NCBI GenBank assembly: GCA_036229005.1
Contig: JAZAMN010000023.1
Coordinates: 1 to 20,387 of the forward strand
Direction: 5' to 3'
DNA length: 20,387 nucleotides
Source of the DNA: Myxococcota bacterium
GTDB taxonomy: Bacteria > Myxococcota_A > UBA796 > CAJQPC01
Positions 1-8,018 of the stretch are shown one piece after another (within the stretch, counting starts at the first letter, position 1; the number at the start of each line of letters is the position of its first letter). Below the pieces are notes generated by a model that was not told where the DNA came from, ran no database searches, and saw nothing but the letters and a program-made list of their open reading frames with translations. Made by a program: the position numbers and the translations under genes.

Positions 1-491
1 CAGAGCTTTAGGCCCCGTTTGAGCTCAATCGGACAAGGTTGGGGCAACCCATGAATCTGCAGGGGTGGGCCTACGGATGCCAGATGGTACGGGAAGGTGC
101 GAGAGAGTGGGTGGGGCCGCCCGTTGGGGTAGAAGAAGCCGCTGGGGAGCCAGGGAGCCGCGCTCGAAGTGGAGTTGTCGCAGCGACGCGGTGGGATTGC
201 CGCTGCCGCATGAGCCCGGATGCTCAACCCCGGCGGCAGGTGTAGCGAGGCGTTCAATGGGAGCCGCGTTCGAGTGGGGGCGGACCCGGCAGTTTTCCCC
301 TTCGACTTCGAGGACACCGCTGGTTTGCTATCTGCGGTCCCTGTCGATGACGGCTGCGGGGGCCTGGCTGCACGGGCGCCTGCAGTGCGCAGGAATCGCC
401 AACCACGCGGAACACACCCAGGACAGGTCAATTGCGACGACACCCGGCAGCCCAAGAGGTCGGCCCGATGCACGATGCGAAGGCCCATCGC

Positions 492-565
492 GCACAACGT
501 TCAGGCGGAGACGCCGTCGTCGGAGGCCGGAGGCCGGAGCGATGGCGTTTCCCGCCCCGTTAGGT
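492..565 (-). repeat. attC-like recombination site, copy 1
   Basis: GCACAAC-GTTCAGGCGGAGACGCCGTCGTCGGAGGCCGGAGGCCGGAGCGATGGCGTTTCCCGCCCC-GTTAGGT; imperfect palindrome bounded by AAC (496-498) and GTT (559-561). Confidence 0.88.
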
Positions 566-611
566 GTCGGAGCGCCGACTACGGGCGGGTGTGTCAGGTC
601 GGGCTGTTTGT

Positions 612-1631
612 CTATAGGCTCCTGGGATTTGCGAATGCCAAGATCTTCTTCACACGGGAGACAACTGACTCCGGGAACGTGTCGGAGACATCGATTCCAT
701 CGGCGAAAACTATGTTTCCATTCTCGCCTGAGATGATGGCGGGTTCGGTCAGTGCGTGGGCAGCCATAGCCAACTGCTCGCGCGAACACTCGTCCACTTG
801 GAGGTACCGGTCCTGGCCACTCCCCCATCCACTATCGAAGAGGCCTTCCGAGTGTAGGTGCCAGAGGTTGACACTGACCAAGTCGGGAATTGGGGGCAAG
901 TCGGCAAGCCGAATCGGCCTGCCTGAGAGGACCAAGAGCTGTCGAGTACCTGAAAGTCCGCTCAAAATGCTGAGGTTTGGAGTTGTCGGATTCCTGACTT
1001 CGACAGACTTGGCGCGTACGTCGGCCGTCGACATCGAGTTTGAGGTCCAGATCTTCAGTGTCTCTACTTCCACGTCGGCTAGACCACCTCCGTAGGAAGA
1101 TAGGTGGAGTTCTGGGAGAGAGAACCCGGACAATGGCGCCCCGCGTGGCCGTGCCTGAGAAACGCACAGCGACCGAAGAGGCAGCCGCCCTGCTATGCTT
1201 CGCAGCTGGGAGACCCGTGGCTCGGCCAAGGTCATTTCCTCAATGTGCTTGGCATCGGACAGCCAGGAAAGCTCTCGGGATGACCCGATCAGTACAATTT
1301 TCCCCACGTTGGCGTGGGCAAGGTAGTCCAGTGCACACATTTTGTCGTGGATAGTAAGGCATTTGACTTGTAGCCCGTCAAGCCAGTTGAGATCTGACAG
1401 GCCGGAGCCCTCCGGCACCCAGATGTCAACGCCACCTTCTGCGGAGGGCAGGTCGGTCAGGACAGGCTCGGCATGCTCTTTGCCCCGCGCGGTGGCAGTC
1501 AGTAGGCCTATACCGTTGGGGTCTGATAGTCGGACGGCATTGTGCATGGGCGCTGGAACTCTGATGTTCGAGGAGCATGGAGAGTAGTGTGGTTCTCGGC
1601 CAGCAACCATTGAATTGAGGCGCTCTGACAC
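612..1631 (-). CDS. Cassette protein with degenerate leucine-rich-repeat-like periodicity; start uncertain (GTG 1631, ATG 1610 or later)
   Basis: 339-aa ORF filling the interval between repeats 1 and 2. Recurring LxxL.xLxxLxL-like segments (LSDLNWLDGLQVKCLTI, LSWLSDAKHIEEMTL, LSILSGLSGTRQLLVL, LADLPPIPDLVSVNL). Confidence 0.55.
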   Translation of the reverse strand: MSERLNSMVAGREPHYSPCSSNIRVPAPMHNAVRLSDPNGIGLLTATARGKEHAEPVLTDLPSAEGGVDIWVPEGSGLSDLNWLDGLQVKCLTIHDKMCALDYLAHANVGKIVLIGSSRELSWLSDAKHIEEMTLAEPRVSQLRSIAGRLPLRSLCVSQARPRGAPLSGFSLPELHLSSYGGGLADVEVETLKIWTSNSMSTADVRAKSVEVRNPTTPNLSILSGLSGTRQLLVLSGRPIRLADLPPIPDLVSVNLWHLHSEGLFDSGWGSGQDRYLQVDECSREQLAMAAHALTEPAIISGENGNIVFADGIDVSDTFPESVVSRVKKILAFANPRSL

Positions 1632-1704
1632 CTAACGTTCTAGGCGGAGACGCCGTCGTCGGAGGCCGCAGGCCGGAGCGATGGCGTTTCCCGCCCCGTT
1701 ATGG
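1630..1704 (-). repeat. attC-like recombination site, copy 2
   Basis: ACCTAAC-GTTCTAGGCGGAGACGCCGTCGTCGGAGGCCGCAGGCCGGAGCGATGGCGTTTCCCGCCCC-GTTATGG; AAC 1634-1636, GTT 1698-1700. Confidence 0.88.
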
Positions 1705-1728
1705 GCAGCCGACCCGACCTTGGAAGGA

Positions 1729-1766
1729 TTGTCCAACTTGACCAACAAGTTGAGTGTGGGTAGGGT
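1729..1766 (+). promoter_or_regulatory. Putative sigma70-type promoter with overlapping operator for the TA operon
   Basis: TTGACC (1738-1743), 17 nt spacer, TAGGGT (1761-1766). The palindrome CAACTTG-N5-CAAGTTG (1734-1752) overlaps the -35 box. An AGGAGG RBS precedes the start at 1784. Confidence 0.55.
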
Positions 1767-1783
1767 CTTCCAAGGAGGTCGTG

Positions 1784-2071
1784 ATGACCAAGACTCTTTC
1801 AGCCGCCATTGCCAAGGCTCAGTTCAGCGATTGCCTTCGCGAAGTGGAGCAGGGGGGCGAGGTGTTGATCACGCGCTACGGCCGTCCTGTAGCAGTTCTT
1901 GTATCAATGGAGGAGCTCGACCAACTTCGTCGATTGCGGGCGGCGTCCCCGATGGAGGGTCTTGCAGGACTGCTGGGCCAGGTGCCCGACGGTGACGAGT
2001 ATGCGGAGTCCCTGGATGCGGTGGTTGCCGAGCGCTCGGTCGGTCGTACTGTGGCGCCCGTGGAGGACTGA
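1784..2071 (+). CDS. Phd/YefM family type II antitoxin
   Basis: MTKTLSAAIAKAQFSDCLREVEQGGEVLITRYGRPVAVLVS is a typical Phd/YefM N-terminal motif; AGGAGG RBS upstream; lies directly before a PIN toxin. Confidence 0.9.
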   Translation: MTKTLSAAIAKAQFSDCLREVEQGGEVLITRYGRPVAVLVSMEELDQLRRLRAASPMEGLAGLLGQVPDGDEYAESLDAVVAERSVGRTVAPVED

Positions 2072-2076
2072 GCTCC

Positions 2077-2493
2077 ATGGCCTTCCTGTTGGACACCAAT
2101 GCCATCTCCGAGGTCCTGCGGTCCAGGCCCAATGCCGAGTTCTCCAAGTGGCTGATGGAGCTCCCGCGCGCTGAGCAGTTCACCAGCAGTGTCGTGGCCG
2201 GCGAGTTGCTGTATGGAGCGCTTCGGAGTTCAAAGCCAGACCGATTCGTCCAGCTCTACGAACACCAAGTGTTGCCCAGGCTGACGGTGCTGCCGTTTGA
2301 TCTCGACTGCGCGCGAGTGTATGCCTCGGTTCGGGCTGAGCTCAGCTCCAAGGGCCAGCCCATTGAGGATGCCGACTTGATGATTGCAGCAACCGCGCTC
2401 CATCATCGGCTGACCGTGGTGACTGCCAATGTTCGGCACTTCGGGCGGGTTCCCGGACTCCGGGTTCGGACATTCAAGCCAGGTTCCCAGTAG
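2077..2493 (+). CDS. vapC: VapC family PIN-domain toxin
   Basis: FLLDTNAISE ... GELLYGA ... DADLMIAATALHHRLTVVTANVRHFGRVPGL; conserved PIN acidic residues; 138 aa; 5 nt after the antitoxin. Confidence 0.93.
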   Translation: MAFLLDTNAISEVLRSRPNAEFSKWLMELPRAEQFTSSVVAGELLYGALRSSKPDRFVQLYEHQVLPRLTVLPFDLDCARVYASVRAELSSKGQPIEDADLMIAATALHHRLTVVTANVRHFGRVPGLRVRTFKPGSQ

Positions 2494-2689
2494 ACCGGAG
2501 ACTGGGGTATTGCTATGAGCTTGCTGACCAGATCGAATGCCTGCGCAGGCTGTTCCAGTCGAGCGATCTCAGAAGTACCAAGATTGCCGCGGGTACGTGC
2601 ATTGTCCGCATAGCCGGCCACCCTGAGAAGCCTTGAGTGCCAGGGTGCTCGTGCTTCGTCTACCAGCCGTCGATTTGAGGGTCGGTTGC

Positions 2690-2763
2690 CCATAACGTTT
2701 AGGCGGAGACGCCGTCGTCGGAGGCCGCAGGCCGGAGCGATGGCGTTTCCCGCCCCGTTAGTT
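2690..2763 (-). repeat. attC-like recombination site, copy 3
   Basis: CCATAAC-GTTTAGGCGGAGACGCCGTCGTCGGAGGCCGCAGGCCGGAGCGATGGCGTTTCCCGCCCC-GTTAGTT; AAC 2694-2696, GTT 2757-2759. Confidence 0.88.
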
Positions 2764-2866
2764 GAAGTGGCCCGGCGTCCGGCGCCCACCTGCCTGACGG
2801 CCGGGCCAAAGCCTCTTTCGTGGGAGGACTCATATGCTGCGACGAGAGAGAAGTTGAAGGGGGGGC

Positions 2867-3700
2867 CTACAAGGCCTGACCAATAAGGGTGTAGCCGGCA
2901 CTGTTGTACATGAGGGATGTGATTCTGAACCCGTCGGCGCACATGTCTTGCACCGCTGTTGAGAGCTCGCTGCCAGAGGCCTGAACGACGGCTCCTGCAT
3001 AGCTGGCATCTTGGTCAGCTCGTTGACCTACTAGCGTGTATCCAGCGGAAGTCGCAGTCGCGGATGTGATGACGAAGCCATTCGCGCTCATCGCGTCCAC
3101 AGTGTCCGCGAGATCCGATCCACCGGGCTGCTCGATGGTGGAGTCCAGATCCCCCTCATCACCCTGTCCGAAGAGAGTGTAGCCGGAGGAGTTGAAGACC
3201 AGGCTCTGAACTACCTGACCGTTGCTGGACATGTCAGCAACAGCCGCCGCCAGGTCTGAACCTGCCACTTGGTCTACTGCTGAGGACCCGGTCAAGGCCC
3301 CAGATTGACCGACAAGAGTGTATCCAGCCGTGTTGAACATCACTTCACCGACGACAAGCCCGGAGCTGTCCATTGAGCTCAGGGTCCCAGCCAGTTCGGA
3401 GCCTGCTACCTGCTGAACGTCGTCAGCTGAGATACCCGACCGGGCATCCTGGGCAAGGAGAGTGTATCCAGCATCATTGGCGACGGCCGCGATTACACGC
3501 TTGTCGCTGGAAGTGAATGTCCCGATCTGCGCAGCGATCTCAGCGCCAGAGACCTGGCTGATGGAGCATCCGCCGTCGACCTTCACCCCGGTCCAGGATG
3601 CCAAGTCGGGGGTTTCGTTGTCCTGGTTGTTGTTTCCGCTGCCGTCAAGTCGGTCGCCAACGAAGCAGCCTTGCAAGGCAATGAGCAGTAGGTAGGTCAT
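2867..3700 (-). CDS. Predicted lipoprotein with five ~48-aa tandem repeats
   Basis: Short signal peptide with lipobox-like LQGC; five units of the form QxxGS(E/D)LxxxxxxMxxxGxxxxxxxxNxAGYTLxGQ. Confidence 0.8.
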   Translation of the reverse strand: MTYLLLIALQGCFVGDRLDGSGNNNQDNETPDLASWTGVKVDGGCSISQVSGAEIAAQIGTFTSSDKRVIAAVANDAGYTLLAQDARSGISADDVQQVAGSELAGTLSSMDSSGLVVGEVMFNTAGYTLVGQSGALTGSSAVDQVAGSDLAAAVADMSSNGQVVQSLVFNSSGYTLFGQGDEGDLDSTIEQPGGSDLADTVDAMSANGFVITSATATSAGYTLVGQRADQDASYAGAVVQASGSELSTAVQDMCADGFRITSLMYNSAGYTLIGQAL

Positions 3701-3904
3701 CTGGTACGCCCTTGTTGAGTCATGGAGTCGTGGGGCTTCGTTCGACTAGAGACCACTGCCCGGTTCGGAGGGGTGGACTTGGCCCCCCAAAGCTCTACCG
3801 GACACTCGCTGGTCAGTTGAAGCCCTGAGGCAATAGCTTGTATTGGGAGGTCGATCCAGAGATCTGGACGCCTGACCAGGAGACATGGCGAGCCGGGTCA
3901 TTTC

Positions 3905-3978
3905 AACTAACGTTTAGGCGGAGACGCCGTCGTCGGAGGCCGCAGGCCGGAGCGATGGCGTTTCCCGCCCCGTTCTAC
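3905..3978 (-). repeat. attC-like recombination site, copy 4
   Basis: AACTAAC-GTTTAGGCGGAGACGCCGTCGTCGGAGGCCGCAGGCCGGAGCGATGGCGTTTCCCGCCCC-GTTCTAC; AAC 3909-3911, GTT 3972-3974; core identical to copy 3. Confidence 0.88.
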
Positions 3979-4016
3979 GTCGGCCGCGACCGCAGAGGAT
4001 AGTATCTCCCAAACGA

Positions 4017-5126
4017 GTGGAGTTGCTCTTGGCGAATCTCGGAAACATGGGGGAGAGCTTCTTCAACCACCTGTGCGATGAAGCGGGCCTGACACCGAAT
4101 CCTGTGAGACGGGATGCGACAGGCTGGGATTTCTTGGTCGAGATTCAACGCGGGATGGCGCCTCAGGGGGTGGACCTATGCCCTGAAACCTCGGCGCCGC
4201 TCGTGACCTGCCGGGTCCAGGTCAAGGCCACACATCGGAGTGAGAACCACGTTGATGGAATCTCGCTCGAGAACTGGCGTCGGCTCGCGATCGGCGAGTT
4301 GCCCGCGTTCTTTGTTGTACTCAGATACGAAGGCCTTCGCCCTGCCAGTGCCTACGTGATTCATGTAGGCCCCGAGCAGTGCAGGATCGTCCAGGAGCGA
4401 CTCCGAAAGGCGGCCGCGGAGAAGAATCCGAGCCTCCGTCGGAGGACTTTGCGCCTCAAGTGGGGTGAAGGGGACGCTCTTCCTGAAGTGAGCGGCGCCT
4501 GCTTGAAGGAACGGCTGGTTGGGGATGTTGGGGACCCGTCGACGTACGGCGCGCGGAAGAAGAAGTGGAATCAGGAAGCTGACTCGACCGTCACCCAGAT
4601 GCGGTTCTCGATAGACAGTGACAGTCTCGGAGCATCCGGGGCCGGAGAGTTCTTTCGGGCCATTGAGGAGCTGGCGCTCGGCATTCGCGAGTCTCTTCCG
4701 GTGACAGTCGCTGAGGTTTCATCGACCAGGCACGGGGTCACGCTGGTTCATCCGCAGACACCAGAGGGGGGCTTCGGCGGCGGGGCCAGGCTTTCTCTCT
4801 CGAACGGGCCACCAAAGGTGAATATGGAGGTGGAGTTCTGCAATCCGAGAGGGACGGTTAGGGCCACTTTCGTCTGGGACGCCATCATCCCCGTCGGCGT
4901 GTTCCCGTTCCTCCCCCATGAGCAGGCACGTGTTCGATACCTAATCGAGGGGGTCGAGTGTGTTCACTCCTTGGGAACCGGAAAGTTTGACCTTGTATTT
5001 CTGCCTGGATTCTTCGGCAGCGTGAGACCGGTCGCTGAGTGGTGGGAATGGATGAAGCTCCTGCGGCTGGTCGAAGAGGGCGCAGTGGAGTTCACCGCGC
5101 GCCCGCCTGAAGGGCTGCCACTCTGA
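4017..5126 (+). CDS. DUF4365-like PD-(D/E)XK nuclease domain protein, N-terminal part of a probably interrupted gene (alternative start TTG 4029)
   Basis: LGNMGESFF ... DATGWDFLVE ... RVQVKAT ... PAFFVVL fits the E...D...(Q/E)xK restriction-endonuclease-fold pattern; family assignment from motif recognition only. Confidence 0.65.
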   Translation: MELLLANLGNMGESFFNHLCDEAGLTPNPVRRDATGWDFLVEIQRGMAPQGVDLCPETSAPLVTCRVQVKATHRSENHVDGISLENWRRLAIGELPAFFVVLRYEGLRPASAYVIHVGPEQCRIVQERLRKAAAEKNPSLRRRTLRLKWGEGDALPEVSGACLKERLVGDVGDPSTYGARKKKWNQEADSTVTQMRFSIDSDSLGASGAGEFFRAIEELALGIRESLPVTVAEVSSTRHGVTLVHPQTPEGGFGGGARLSLSNGPPKVNMEVEFCNPRGTVRATFVWDAIIPVGVFPFLPHEQARVRYLIEGVECVHSLGTGKFDLVFLPGFFGSVRPVAEWWEWMKLLRLVEEGAVEFTARPPEGLPL

Positions 5127-5192
5127 GGCCGGTGGGAGGCCGTAGAGTTTGAGGGTGACCTCCGAGGACTCGCTGGCGAGGGGTACATAGCT

Positions 5193-5645
5193 GTGCAGGC
5201 GGCGCGTGATGTTCTTCACGACTTCGAGCTCCCGCTGAACATCGCAGTTGATCTAAGCGATTTGACTCGACAGACTGAACGGCTTCGGCTGGTCCGAGGG
5301 CTTCTTCAGGCCCAGCGCGTGGGATTGAAGATGCAGGTGAGCATCCAGATTCCGAGTGAAGCTGAGACTCCTAGGGAACTCGGGCATGGAGCTGTCGCTG
5401 CGGTTCGCGTAGGAGACCGGGTGCTCTTGATCGGGGCAGCGCTTGGCGGCGAGGTCGACGAGGTGGGGCGTGAAGGTGTTTGGACTCGGGTGGAGTGGGC
5501 GAGACCAGAGGTTGTCGTGGTGTACCGGAAAGTGTGTGACAGCGAGGAATTCCGCCAAGCTATGGTCGAGTGCGCGTACGAGCGCATCGTTGAGCACCTA
5601 GAAGACCTGCCGTACGACTATGTTGATCCAAGGCTGAGCGGCTGA
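5193..5645 (+). CDS. Hypothetical protein; in-frame C-terminal continuation of 4017..5126 beyond a single TGA
   Basis: Same frame as 4017 (offset 1176 nt); 5127-5192 is stop-free (GRWEAVEFEGDLRGLAGEGYIA); stop at 5643-5645 lies inside the cassette terminal repeat. Confidence 0.55.
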   Translation: MQAARDVLHDFELPLNIAVDLSDLTRQTERLRLVRGLLQAQRVGLKMQVSIQIPSEAETPRELGHGAVAAVRVGDRVLLIGAALGGEVDEVGREGVWTRVEWARPEVVVVYRKVCDSEEFRQAMVECAYERIVEHLEDLPYDYVDPRLSG

Positions 5646-5690
5646 CGTAGAACGTCCGCCTAGACGCCCCTCAGGGTTTTGTGCGCTGTC
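5638..5690 (-). other. Candidate attI-like primary integration site (crossover near AAC 5651-5653)
   Basis: The terminal repeat of the last cassette ends in AAC at 5651-5653 but is followed by unique sequence (GTCCGCCTAGACGCCCC) instead of the attC core; ~150 bp upstream of the recombinase start. Confidence 0.65.
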
Positions 5691-5806
5691 GAATGTTTGA
5701 CACCCCTCACCGGGGGGAGGCCGGGGGGATGTCGATGAGATGGGGGTTCTGGGGTTGGCCTGGGTCTTGCTACGCGAGGAGGTGCGTTGCGAAAGGAGGG
5801 TGTGCT

Positions 5807-6643
5807 GTGGAGAAGGTGCTGTCTGAAGGGCTGTTTGAGCGGTATCGGCAGGAATTGCGTTTACGCGGGTATATGCCGCGGACGGTGGACACCTATGTGA
5901 GCTGCCTGAGGAGCTATGTGCGGTGGTTGGGGGTGGCGGTGATTCCCAGGGAGGTGGCGGAGGACACGCCTCGGAACTTCCTGATGGGCCTGGTGGAGAC
6001 GGGGGCGTCCCGCTCGCTGTTGGATCAGATGATCTCGGCGCTGAACTTTCTGTACGTGGAGCTGTACGGATGGGAAAAGGACGCGCTGGACATGCCCCGG
6101 CCGAAACGGAGGCAGACGCTGCCAGTGGTCCCGACCCGCGATGAGGTGCTGAGGCTGGCAGAGGCCTGCCAGAACCGAAAGCACCGGGCGGCTGTGCTGC
6201 TGACCTACGCCTGCGGGTTGCGGGTGTCCGAGCTGGTGGGGCTCCGAGTGGGGGACGTGGAGCCCGATGAGCTGCTGGTGCGCGTGCGCTGCGGAAAGGG
6301 GGGAAAGGACAGGGTCACGATCCTGGCCGAGAGCCTGGTCCCCGAGGTGGAGTGGCTGTCGGCCGGGAAGACGCAGGTGGACTTCCTGATCCACTCAGCC
6401 AGAGGAGGGCAGTGGTCGACCCGCTCGATGCAGGCGGTGATGGCCAGAGCTCGCATCGAAGCAGGGCTGCACAAGCGGGTGACGCCCCACTCATTGCGCC
6501 ACGCGTTCGCCACGCACCTGCTCGAGCAAGGGACGGACCTGCGCGTGATCCAGGTGATGCTCGGTCACAACCACATCGCCACGACGACCCGGTACACGCA
6601 CGTGGTCAGCCCGGCGAAGGTGAGGGTGCGGTCGCCGCTCTGA
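5807..6643 (+). CDS. Tyrosine recombinase/integrase, IntI-like but lacking the IntI-specific insertion
   Basis: GTG start after AAAGGAGG; N-terminal SAM-like domain (LRLRGYMPRTVDTY); catalytic R (GLRVSE), K (GKGGKDR), HxxR (HSLRH), H (LGH) and Y (TRYTH) present; C-terminal VRSPL; 278 aa. Confidence 0.93.
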   Translation: MEKVLSEGLFERYRQELRLRGYMPRTVDTYVSCLRSYVRWLGVAVIPREVAEDTPRNFLMGLVETGASRSLLDQMISALNFLYVELYGWEKDALDMPRPKRRQTLPVVPTRDEVLRLAEACQNRKHRAAVLLTYACGLRVSELVGLRVGDVEPDELLVRVRCGKGGKDRVTILAESLVPEVEWLSAGKTQVDFLIHSARGGQWSTRSMQAVMARARIEAGLHKRVTPHSLRHAFATHLLEQGTDLRVIQVMLGHNHIATTTRYTHVVSPAKVRVRSPL

Positions 6644-6654
6644 GGCGAGTGTGC

Positions 6655-6730
6655 TTAGGCGCAGGGATTGCGGGATGCGGGTTTAGGGCGCGGGGATTGC
6701 GGGATGCGTGGGAAGTGCGCATTGCGGGAT
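6655..6730. repeat. Short direct repeats downstream of the integrase
   Basis: GGGATTGCGGGATGCG at 6664-6679 and 6693-6708, each preceded by TTAG(G)GCGC(A/G); partial ATTGCGGGAT at 6721-6730. Confidence 0.7.
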
Positions 6731-6809
6731 CGGTTTTTTTCCACCGATAGACGCAGTTGCGGGTTTGAGGTGGGTTCACGCAGTCTCAAGATGGTCCGAT
6801 GAAGGGGAC

Positions 6810-8018
6810 ATGCGCACGTTGACCTTCGTCTTTGCTGTCCTGCTCGCCCAAGAGGGCGGGTGGTCGGGTTCCATGGGTTCGCCAGGGTCGGAAGCTCCAC
6901 CCCCCGACGAGGAGACCGGTCAGGACACCTCTGAAGGAGAGGGCTCGGGCGAGGTCTCTGAGGGGGCTGATCCGGTGCACAGGGCAACGGATGAGGCGGG
7001 AACGGACGAGGTCCCCGAGGTGGAGCCACCACGCAGTTCCTCGCTGGTGGTTGGGGGTGTTGAGGATGGGGTGGGCCCAGAGGATGAGGCGGTGGGCCCG
7101 GATCTTGGGGAGGGGGAAAGCGCCGCTCCTCCTCTGGATCTGTCGCAAGCATCGACGGTTCCAGATGTGACACCGGCGCAGCTTGAGTGGCTGCGACCTC
7201 GGCTGGGGAAGCTGCCGCCGAACCCGCGGGCGCACACGGACTACACGGCGTACACGCTGGACTTCGGTGAGGTGCAGCTCGGCCTGACGAACACGCGCGT
7301 GGGGCTGCTGCCGCGGACGCAGGTGGGGGCGAACCTGCCGCTGACGCTGGCGGGGGTCTACAACGGGAACGTGAAGGTGAACGCGCTCCGGGCCGGTCCG
7401 GTGGACGTGGCGGTGTCGGGGGCGGGGTACCGCTACCTGCAGTCGGAGTTCGAGGCGCAGTACTGGTCGGTGGGGCCGACGGTGAGCTTGGCGCTGGGGC
7501 CGCACTTTGGGGTGCACCTGGGCGGGCAGTATTGGCGCGTGGGGATGGAGGGGGCGTTCGCGGCGGCGGAGGTGCACCCGGTGCTGGGACTGGCTGACGA
7601 GGTGGGGCTGTTCCCGCAGGTGGCCTACCAAGGCCAGGCAGCGAGCGGCCGGCTGGCGCTGGAGTGGCGGCTGAACCGCCGGGACTCGTTCGTGCTGGAC
7701 GCGGGGACGATGTTCTGGATGGAGGAGCTGCCGGGGAGCAAGAGCCAGGTGCCGCCGATGCTGGGGGCGTACGCGGGGAGCTCGGGGTTCTCGCCGCAGG
7801 ACAGCTACCGGGTGTCGCTGGCGTACCAGATGGACCTCAAGCGGCTGTCGCTGCGGGCAGGGGTGGGGACCTCGCAGCCGTCGGGGGCGTGGCTGCTGAA
7901 CACCTTCGAGGCGAGCTACCGATTCGGGGGCAAGACGAAGGCGCAGGAGCGGCGACAGCGCAGGACCTGGCGGCAGAACCGGCGGCACGCGCGCAAGGGA
8001 GAGCCGGGGGCGCCCTGA
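6810..8018 (+). CDS. Secreted hypothetical protein, possibly outer-membrane beta-barrel
   Basis: ATG 6810 after GAAGGGGA; hydrophobic N-terminus MRTLTFVFAVLLAQ; acidic low-complexity linker; then alternating beta-strand-like segments ending ...FEASYRFGG; strong GC3 codon bias from ~7200. Confidence 0.65.
   Translation: MRTLTFVFAVLLAQEGGWSGSMGSPGSEAPPPDEETGQDTSEGEGSGEVSEGADPVHRATDEAGTDEVPEVEPPRSSSLVVGGVEDGVGPEDEAVGPDLGEGESAAPPLDLSQASTVPDVTPAQLEWLRPRLGKLPPNPRAHTDYTAYTLDFGEVQLGLTNTRVGLLPRTQVGANLPLTLAGVYNGNVKVNALRAGPVDVAVSGAGYRYLQSEFEAQYWSVGPTVSLALGPHFGVHLGGQYWRVGMEGAFAAAEVHPVLGLADEVGLFPQVAYQGQAASGRLALEWRLNRRDSFVLDAGTMFWMEELPGSKSQVPPMLGAYAGSSGFSPQDSYRVSLAYQMDLKRLSLRAGVGTSQPSGAWLLNTFEASYRFGGKTKAQERRQRRTWRQNRRHARKGEPGAP

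Follow-up and report, generated by a model that had tools for sequence, protein, structure and literature searches.

The window examined here comprises positions 1 to 20,387 of contig JAZAMN010000023.1 from a Myxococcota bacterium (assembly GCA_036229005.1; genome 94% complete), and carries an integron-like array of four complete cassettes and one partial distal cassette, with a tyrosine recombinase gene adjoining. The cassettes lie in tandem between hairpin repeats that run from AAC to GTT and contain an unpaired spacer and an extrahelical base, as in integrons; four near-identical hairpin bodies of 60–61 bases divide them. The two ends of each cassette form a long stem of their own, with a fixed G.T mismatch at position 11. 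This long-stem design is real, is found across the family and is absent from canonical controls; the system appears to work in an integron-like manner, and its recombinase lacks the feature that marks membership of the integron integrases (IntI), namely the I2 helix. In the favoured reading, the array is served by this I2-less tyrosine recombinase, and the long R'/R'' arm is its site on the folded bottom strand; the probability of this is put at about 0.6.

The sequence-only reading had given every cassette a private terminal inverted repeat, and all eight arms of the four cassettes are found where it placed them, with stems of 18, 18, 20 and 16 bp. It was also right that all arm mismatches are G.T on the + strand, with one at position 11 in 4/4 cassettes, and that GA precedes every right arm and GAC or GTC follows every left arm (again 4/4). 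The arms and the other parts of the array are as follows.

481–498, + strand: R' outer-stem arm of the partial distal cassette, ending in AAC, with T at position 11 (488) and GA before it
499–558, + strand: attC body 1, with a constant inner hairpin, one extrahelical base and an asymmetric unpaired spacer
559–576, + strand: cassette 1 left arm (R''), G at position 11 (569)
612–1613, − strand: cassette 1 open reading frame (ORF), start uncertain; no family match in the part scanned (to 1562)
1619–1636, + strand: cassette 1 right arm (R'), T at position 11 (1626); probable crossover at AA|C, 1635/1636
1637–1697, + strand: attC body 2
1698–1715, + strand: cassette 2 left arm, G1708
1787–2493, + strand: cassette 2 cargo, a type II toxin–antitoxin pair of Phd/YefM antitoxin (1787–2071) and PIN/VapC toxin (2077–2493)
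2679–2696, + strand: cassette 2 right arm, T2686
2697–2756, + strand: attC body 3
2757–2776, + strand: cassette 3 left arm, G2767, with a second G.T at position 14
2867–3700, − strand: cassette 3 ORF, 277 amino acids; no family match of note
3892–3911, + strand: cassette 3 right arm, T3901
3912–3971, + strand: attC body 4
3972–3987, + strand: cassette 4 left arm, G3982
4017–5645, + strand: cassette 4 reading frame with an in-frame TGA at 5124–5126
5638–5653, + strand: cassette 4 right arm, T5643; its AAC (5651–5653) is the attI junction
5651–5806, strand not assigned: attI-like insertion site and promoter region
5807–6643, + strand: gene for a 278-amino-acid IntI-like tyrosine recombinase, directed away from the array

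For the partial distal cassette, the contig stops before the partner arm, which was not found in the assembly. Pairing between cognate arms exceeds what chance provides. When the four left arms were compared with every AAC-ending stretch of positions 1–5650 on both strands (the fourth cognate end lying just outside), 564 trials gave seven stems of at least 14 bp, namely three cognate ones and four trivial self-matches, with none non-cognate. Likewise, 0/20 non-cognate arm pairs of the window's genome reached 14 bp. A scan of this 6.4 Mb genome for the signature returned six matches, four of which are cassettes of the array's system, and five control triplets in the same scan returned 0, 0, 2, 0 and 2.

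The genome also contains a solo cassette (G000:C57:89933-90786), which has an 18-bp stem with G.T at position 11 and the flanks TA/GG, not GA/GAC. With its attC body, which is the same as in the array apart from the first spacer bases, it spans G000:C57:89876-90786 and lies in a GC-rich repeat element; its junctions agree with insertion at G|AT, a non-canonical site.

Polarity and crossover position define what the repeats are. Contigs from other strains match the window from position 5651 onwards and differ before it (run X5 record 32, run X2 record 16), one of them carrying 1057 other bases ahead of 5651. These contigs, together with the ends of first cassettes in relatives, place insertion at the AAC of an attI site beside the recombinase gene, and in relatives the first cassette lies directly against the gene for the short recombinase. 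The solo cassette has its body on the left and its AAC end on the right. From this polarity and the strain breakpoints at 5651, it follows that the window's + strand is the integron bottom strand and that exchange takes place at or beside AAC, which is also where attC sites are described as being exchanged on the bottom strand (PMC5027507; cited, like the other papers below, from excerpts). Hence the terminal repeats correspond to R' and R'', which between them make up an attC-like outer stem; only excision as a circle completes that stem. In the array, the base that bulges from the bottom (+) strand is C; the canonical extrahelical G of L'' was not found there.

The same design recurs in relatives. 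The recombinase has a match at E <= 1e-40 in 33 of 182 genomes of the class, mostly at 48–69% identity. In one family, where cassettes were delimited by body motifs alone and no pairing filter was applied, 26/27 and 3/3 cassettes have the position-11 mismatch; the lone exception among these 30 has a one-base insertion. Short recombinases also head arrays with the same signature on a Rufibacter tibetensis plasmid (Bacteroidota; L139) and on metagenome contigs, where the bodies are unrelated and AT-rich and the array usually lies downstream of the recombinase gene. Because general-purpose searches for hairpins returned many false sites, in GC-rich as in AT-rich DNA, cassette ends were delimited by motif or by hand instead. 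The resulting pooled set held 60 cassettes from eight related genomes, the Bacteroidota plasmid and six metagenome contigs; one was dropped for having fewer than 6/7 pairs in the R box, leaving 59. Their stems have a median of 18 bp (range 7–26) and reach at least 14 bp in 53 cases. Further cassettes do carry the pattern: bottom-strand G.T occupies position 11 in 57/59, and position 8 is G.C in 53/59. AAC/GTT is invariant, and 16/59 arms fit GTTRRRY (positions 4–7, at most one mismatch), a figure that allows no fair comparison with the canonical set, which was pre-filtered on this consensus. In 12 of the 30 loci L004–L033, inspection by eye shows an AAC junction ahead of the gene and T at position 11, an uncontrolled count that includes many loci without upstream DNA. 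A closing tandem G.A pair, which had been suggested as part of the design, occurs in only 8/59 pooled cassettes and is not a general feature. The first unpaired pair is G.A in 19/59, including 5/5 in the window's genome; the G.A cap is a local preference.

Variants of the arms also occur. In G093, G094, G097 and G099 (L248–L260, L040), stems extend to 22–26 bp and a second bottom-strand G.T is frequent at positions 18–19. Some arrays add a position-10 mismatch (bottom-strand T.T) beside the G.T (L057, L060, L072; L071, L075, L080, L120, L139). At L253:4556-4675, L257:1753-1880 and L072:5924-6035, arm pairs lie only 110–130 bases apart, like empty or nested mini-cassettes.

Canonical integrons served as control. 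Forty regions around full-length IntI, 20 from the same phylum and 20 from the class of a Gammaproteobacteria genome, yielded 118 consecutive attC pairs, of which 18 were removed by the same R-box filter, leaving 100 pairs from 21 loci. The finder demanded a RYYYAAC/GTTRRRY-like consensus, and a small number of false sites passed it. A scan of genome contigs returned only three distant loci, and a plasmid search for mobile-integron controls gave none that was used, so that the set contains neither class 1 cassettes nor Vibrio repeats. Stems in these 100 cassettes have a median of 9 bp and a maximum of 13, so that none reaches 14 bp, and a wobble at position 11 followed by three pairs occurs in 0/100; the pattern is thus not common among canonical cassettes. 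The same-phylum subset (n = 40) is closely similar (median 9.5, maximum 13). The earlier statement that canonical ends need only about 7 bp therefore understates the pairing actually present in these controls. A same-genome control was sought in G112, which has both enzyme types, and provided one canonical attC only and no cassette pair. The asymmetric spacer was considered as a family marker and rejected, as the 2-versus-5 register is also found in canonical arrays of the same phylum. The repeats beside a canonical IntI at L146 (G035) depart from ordinary cassettes: their flanks hardly vary, and their cognate ends pair poorly.

Within the 59 cassettes, positions 4–10 and 12–15 each show three or four Watson–Crick pair types, and the other in-stem mismatches comprise 33 bottom-strand G.T, two top-strand G.T and nine of other kinds. 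The same G.T bias towards the recombined bottom strand is described for canonical attC (PMC5027507). Among 23 pairs of related arms, some of which overlap, 79 double changes keep the pairing and 16 single changes lead to wobble, while pairing is broken by ten single and five double changes. The folding energy is −36.3 to −38.7 kcal/mol for modelled circle junctions versus −20.8 to −25.7 kcal/mol for the array sites, and in 4/4 modelled circles the bottom strand folds more stably than the top. Pair types, compensated changes and folding together bear out the earlier proposal of an extended, sequence-variable but structure-conserved stem on the + strand of the excised circle. As judged by these comparisons, the structure is under apparent selection on the bottom strand. 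An origin in mRNA folding is rejected because the G.T keeps to the + strand whichever strand a cassette's ORF is on. Terminal inverted repeats of a transposon or miniature inverted-repeat transposable element are likewise rejected: no transposase is found among the scanned cassette ORFs, the arms are private, and there is no duplication at the junctions.

The arms may also record how cassettes arise. In 21 of the 23 arm-related cassette pairs (at least 18/24 identical bases at both ends), the cargo is unrelated by tblastx. In one pair from two genomes, the arms share 24/24 and 23/24 bases, and identity falls to 9–10/24 just inside, ending with the stem. Such near-identical arm pairs around unrelated genes hint at a manner of cassette building in which whole circle junctions may be reused for new cargo. 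Carried to its end, this would make the arms a footprint of genesis only: new cargo would be taken into a duplicate of a circle junction that already exists, arms and wobble would be inherited together, and length beyond approximately 10 bp would have no role in recombination. This is rather improbable. A contig of run X1 that shares positions 1698–1714 and then continues with other sequence is consistent with it, though weakly. Arm likeness may, however, partly reflect shared consensus, and a passive relic should decay at random, whereas 79 changes kept pairing versus 15 that broke it and wobbles are distributed 33:2 by strand. Building by junction reuse is nevertheless compatible with recognition of the long arm; the recognition determinant and the genesis footprint suggested earlier both find support in the comparisons and appear mutually compatible.

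The recombinase itself is atypical, as the sequence-only reading had it. It is IntI-like and, by motif spacing, lacks the I2 insertion. The six catalytic residues (R139, K164, H228, R231, H254 and Y263) are present and invariant in 46 homologues, and PF00589 is matched. The IntI-specific insertion of approximately 42 amino acids, which contains the I2 helix near patch III, is missing; motif-to-motif spacing is 58 amino acids in the window enzyme and 55–68 in the short recombinases, versus 99–100 in canonical IntI, and the alignment to VchIntI4 (2a3v) is split. The best NCBIfam match is TIGR02249 at 188.1 bits, below its cut-off of 265, followed closely by the XerA model at 184.5 bits; the enzyme scores under all Xer cut-offs and does not qualify as a Xer orthologue. 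The genome's own Xer proteins are separate, with 27–35% identity to the window enzyme and a branch of their own (support 100). In a tree of 65 proteins, the array-linked short enzymes form three groups that are separate from canonical IntI (support 100, with a single long stray row) and from Xer (100), the window's group comprising 13 rows (support 100). The tree comes from a quick search, in which deep branches are weak, the deep order is unresolved and row L134 is probably mis-extracted.

The nearness of the profile scores raises the question of whether recombination is simply of the double-stranded Xer type. The difference between A and G at position 11 would then reflect the sequence preferences of two inverted binding arms, with no hairpin involved, and the fixed sequence at positions 1–3, 8 and 11 would be accounted for. 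Such preferences can, on the other hand, explain neither complementarity private to each cassette, with its three or four pair types per position, nor the strand bias of the wobbles, and a hairpin body of 60–190 bases separates the two arms. This explanation is very unlikely.

Still less credible is the view that the short recombinase is a bystander and that a canonical IntI, located elsewhere or since lost, moves the cassettes. In its favour, Cury et al. (10.1101/030866) report 21 recombinases that lack I2 near attC sites, scattered in their tree and judged not to be IntI, and G112 has both enzyme types. However, canonical IntI was not found in the window's genome nor in nine sampled genomes of its family, the signature is seen in none of the canonical cassettes, and it is the short recombinase gene that first cassettes abut. 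The enzymes in Fig. S1 of that paper may include members of the short-recombinase family.

The mechanism proposed for the long-arm reading starts from the ends of each cassette, complementary over 14–26 bp with their fixed bottom-strand G.T at position 11, and from exchange, which the boundaries show to take place at the bottom-strand (+) AAC, just as it does in integrons. In the excised circle, the predicted fold of the bottom strand is one long hairpin, computed to be 11–16 kcal/mol more stable than the chimeric array site. An enzyme without I2 would bind in a Xer-like manner and would need, beside the cut, an arm fully paired for about one turn of the helix; the arms of tyrosine recombinase sites span about 11 bp. 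The G.T, which lies ten base pairs from the cut and corresponds to an unpaired A.C on the other strand, may mark the bottom strand and its orientation, a task that would fall in IntI to the extrahelical bases and I2. Because both the full paired arm and the strand mark would be needed, circles would be good substrates and array sites poor ones, and integration at attI would be favoured over loss.

Several points weigh against this reading. I2 has been held necessary for cassette capture (PMC7790495), and the verdict of Cury et al. that I2-lacking recombinases near attC are not IntI points in the same direction. In the pooled set, 2/59 cassettes lack the position-11 mismatch and 6/59 have a stem shorter than 14 bp; pairing was used to choose one end in about 14 of the 60 cassettes, and cassettes that share a genome are not independent. 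Circle junctions were absent among the 15 of 33 joints listed (contigs only), which is no evidence either way. Excision, moreover, would use non-cognate arms in which only about 4 bp are paired, and a strict need for long arms makes excision hard to explain without another fold.

One such fold would let each cassette address itself: in the single-stranded array, the two arms of a cassette would pair across its gene and the near-identical bodies crosswise, giving a split attC with a perfect outer stem. It is unlikely that the arms serve in this way to set single-cassette excision or to free the circle once strands have been exchanged. For cassettes 1 and 2, the predicted probability of cognate-stem pairing on the + strand is 0.99, with 0.6–0.7 for the crosswise bodies and 0.0 for the local R box, and pairing exceeds 0.5 on at least one strand in 5/7 other cassettes of the long-stem type. 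Long-range folding was nonetheless rejected as discriminating evidence, as it is also present in 7/14 canonical cassettes, and equilibrium models leave out kinetics and single-strand binding protein over 1 kb.

The long-arm reading can be extended to a widespread, overlooked branch of I2-less integrons, in which the long private arm and the G.T would replace readout by I2 and extrahelical bases, survivors of a pre-I2 stage would be preserved, and reuse of arm pairs would record cassette building. This extension is tentative and on balance doubtful. On the accepted view, it was the acquisition of I2 that enabled integrases to recombine cassettes as single strands, with natural intermediates lacking (PMC7790495). 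If the I2-less array system is active, it would be either the missing intermediate or a second solution to cassette recombination. The standard integron finder discards recombinases without I2 (10.1101/030866), and cassette arrays in Myxococcota-like and Bacteroidota genomes would then be missed or misfiled. The system would further provide a simple diagnostic signature and a short, mutable site for studying substrate recognition and cassette genesis; cassette creation is described as unexplained in the excerpts of 10.1101/030866. No description of long cassette-private R stems, the position-11 mismatch or I2-less integrons was found in the full-text literature, a search whose coverage leaves out most subscription papers, nor is there anything on the feature in the excerpts of PMC3053210, PMC8618304, PMC2426708, PMC8435808, 10.1101/2022.02.06.479319 and 10.1101/2024.07.02.601686.

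Other observations concern the cargo and the attI region. Family searches with the proteins of cassettes 1, 3 and 4 gave no match of note, and Rfam has no match across positions 1–7000. The TGA-broken frame of cassette 4 shows no difference in contigs of runs X1 and X3 that span 4017–5645; it has a weak PADLOC match to PDC-M02A (E 0.038). The vapBC cassette (1698–2696) is also present in another run (X5 record 30), about 5% diverged; runs X2 and X5 leave cassettes 3 and 4 uncovered, gaps that prove nothing. On the attI side, an inverted ten-base copy (5654–5663) of the start of an attC body (1639–1648) may be due to chance and was not seen among the relatives inspected. A palindrome, TGTC-N8-GACA, at 5688–5703 upstream of the recombinase gene is a candidate operator, and G005 has a similar one.

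As in canonical integrons, a recombinase gene adjoins the insertion site and the tandem cassettes, AAC and GTT mark the limits of the hairpin repeats, and the system has chimeric array sites, a one-strand G.T bias, a toxin–antitoxin cassette and the same crossover polarity. It differs in that the recombinase is about 42 amino acids short of IntI and, at 188 bits, stays below the cut-off of 265, in the outer stem (median 18 versus 9 bp) and in the G.T at position 11 (57/59 versus 0/100). As an array without a gene that matches the IntI-specific profile, it would be classed as an attC cluster with no integron integrase (CALIN; 10.1101/030866). Unlike a CALIN, it has a conserved, intact tyrosine recombinase abutting the first cassette, and strains differ at that very junction. 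Short IntI-like recombinases beside IS91-family transposases share the short motif spacing and the C-terminal SPL-type end and occupy a neighbouring branch of the tree; unlike the window, the annotated example L138 shows no signature-bearing cassette array. XerC, XerD and XerA also lack the I2 helix, XerA being near to the window enzyme in length and profile score. Xer enzymes acting on the hairpin substrates of integrative mobile elements exploiting Xer (IMEX) recombine a folded single strand that mimics duplex arms, with one strand exchange, and XerC on CTX phage is a precedent for an I2-less enzyme on such DNA (PMC7790495). Unlike Xer, the window enzyme sits at a cassette array, and its arms vary by cassette, where dif-type sites have fixed arms. 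Array and I2-less recombinase together point to an overlooked branch of gene-capture systems.

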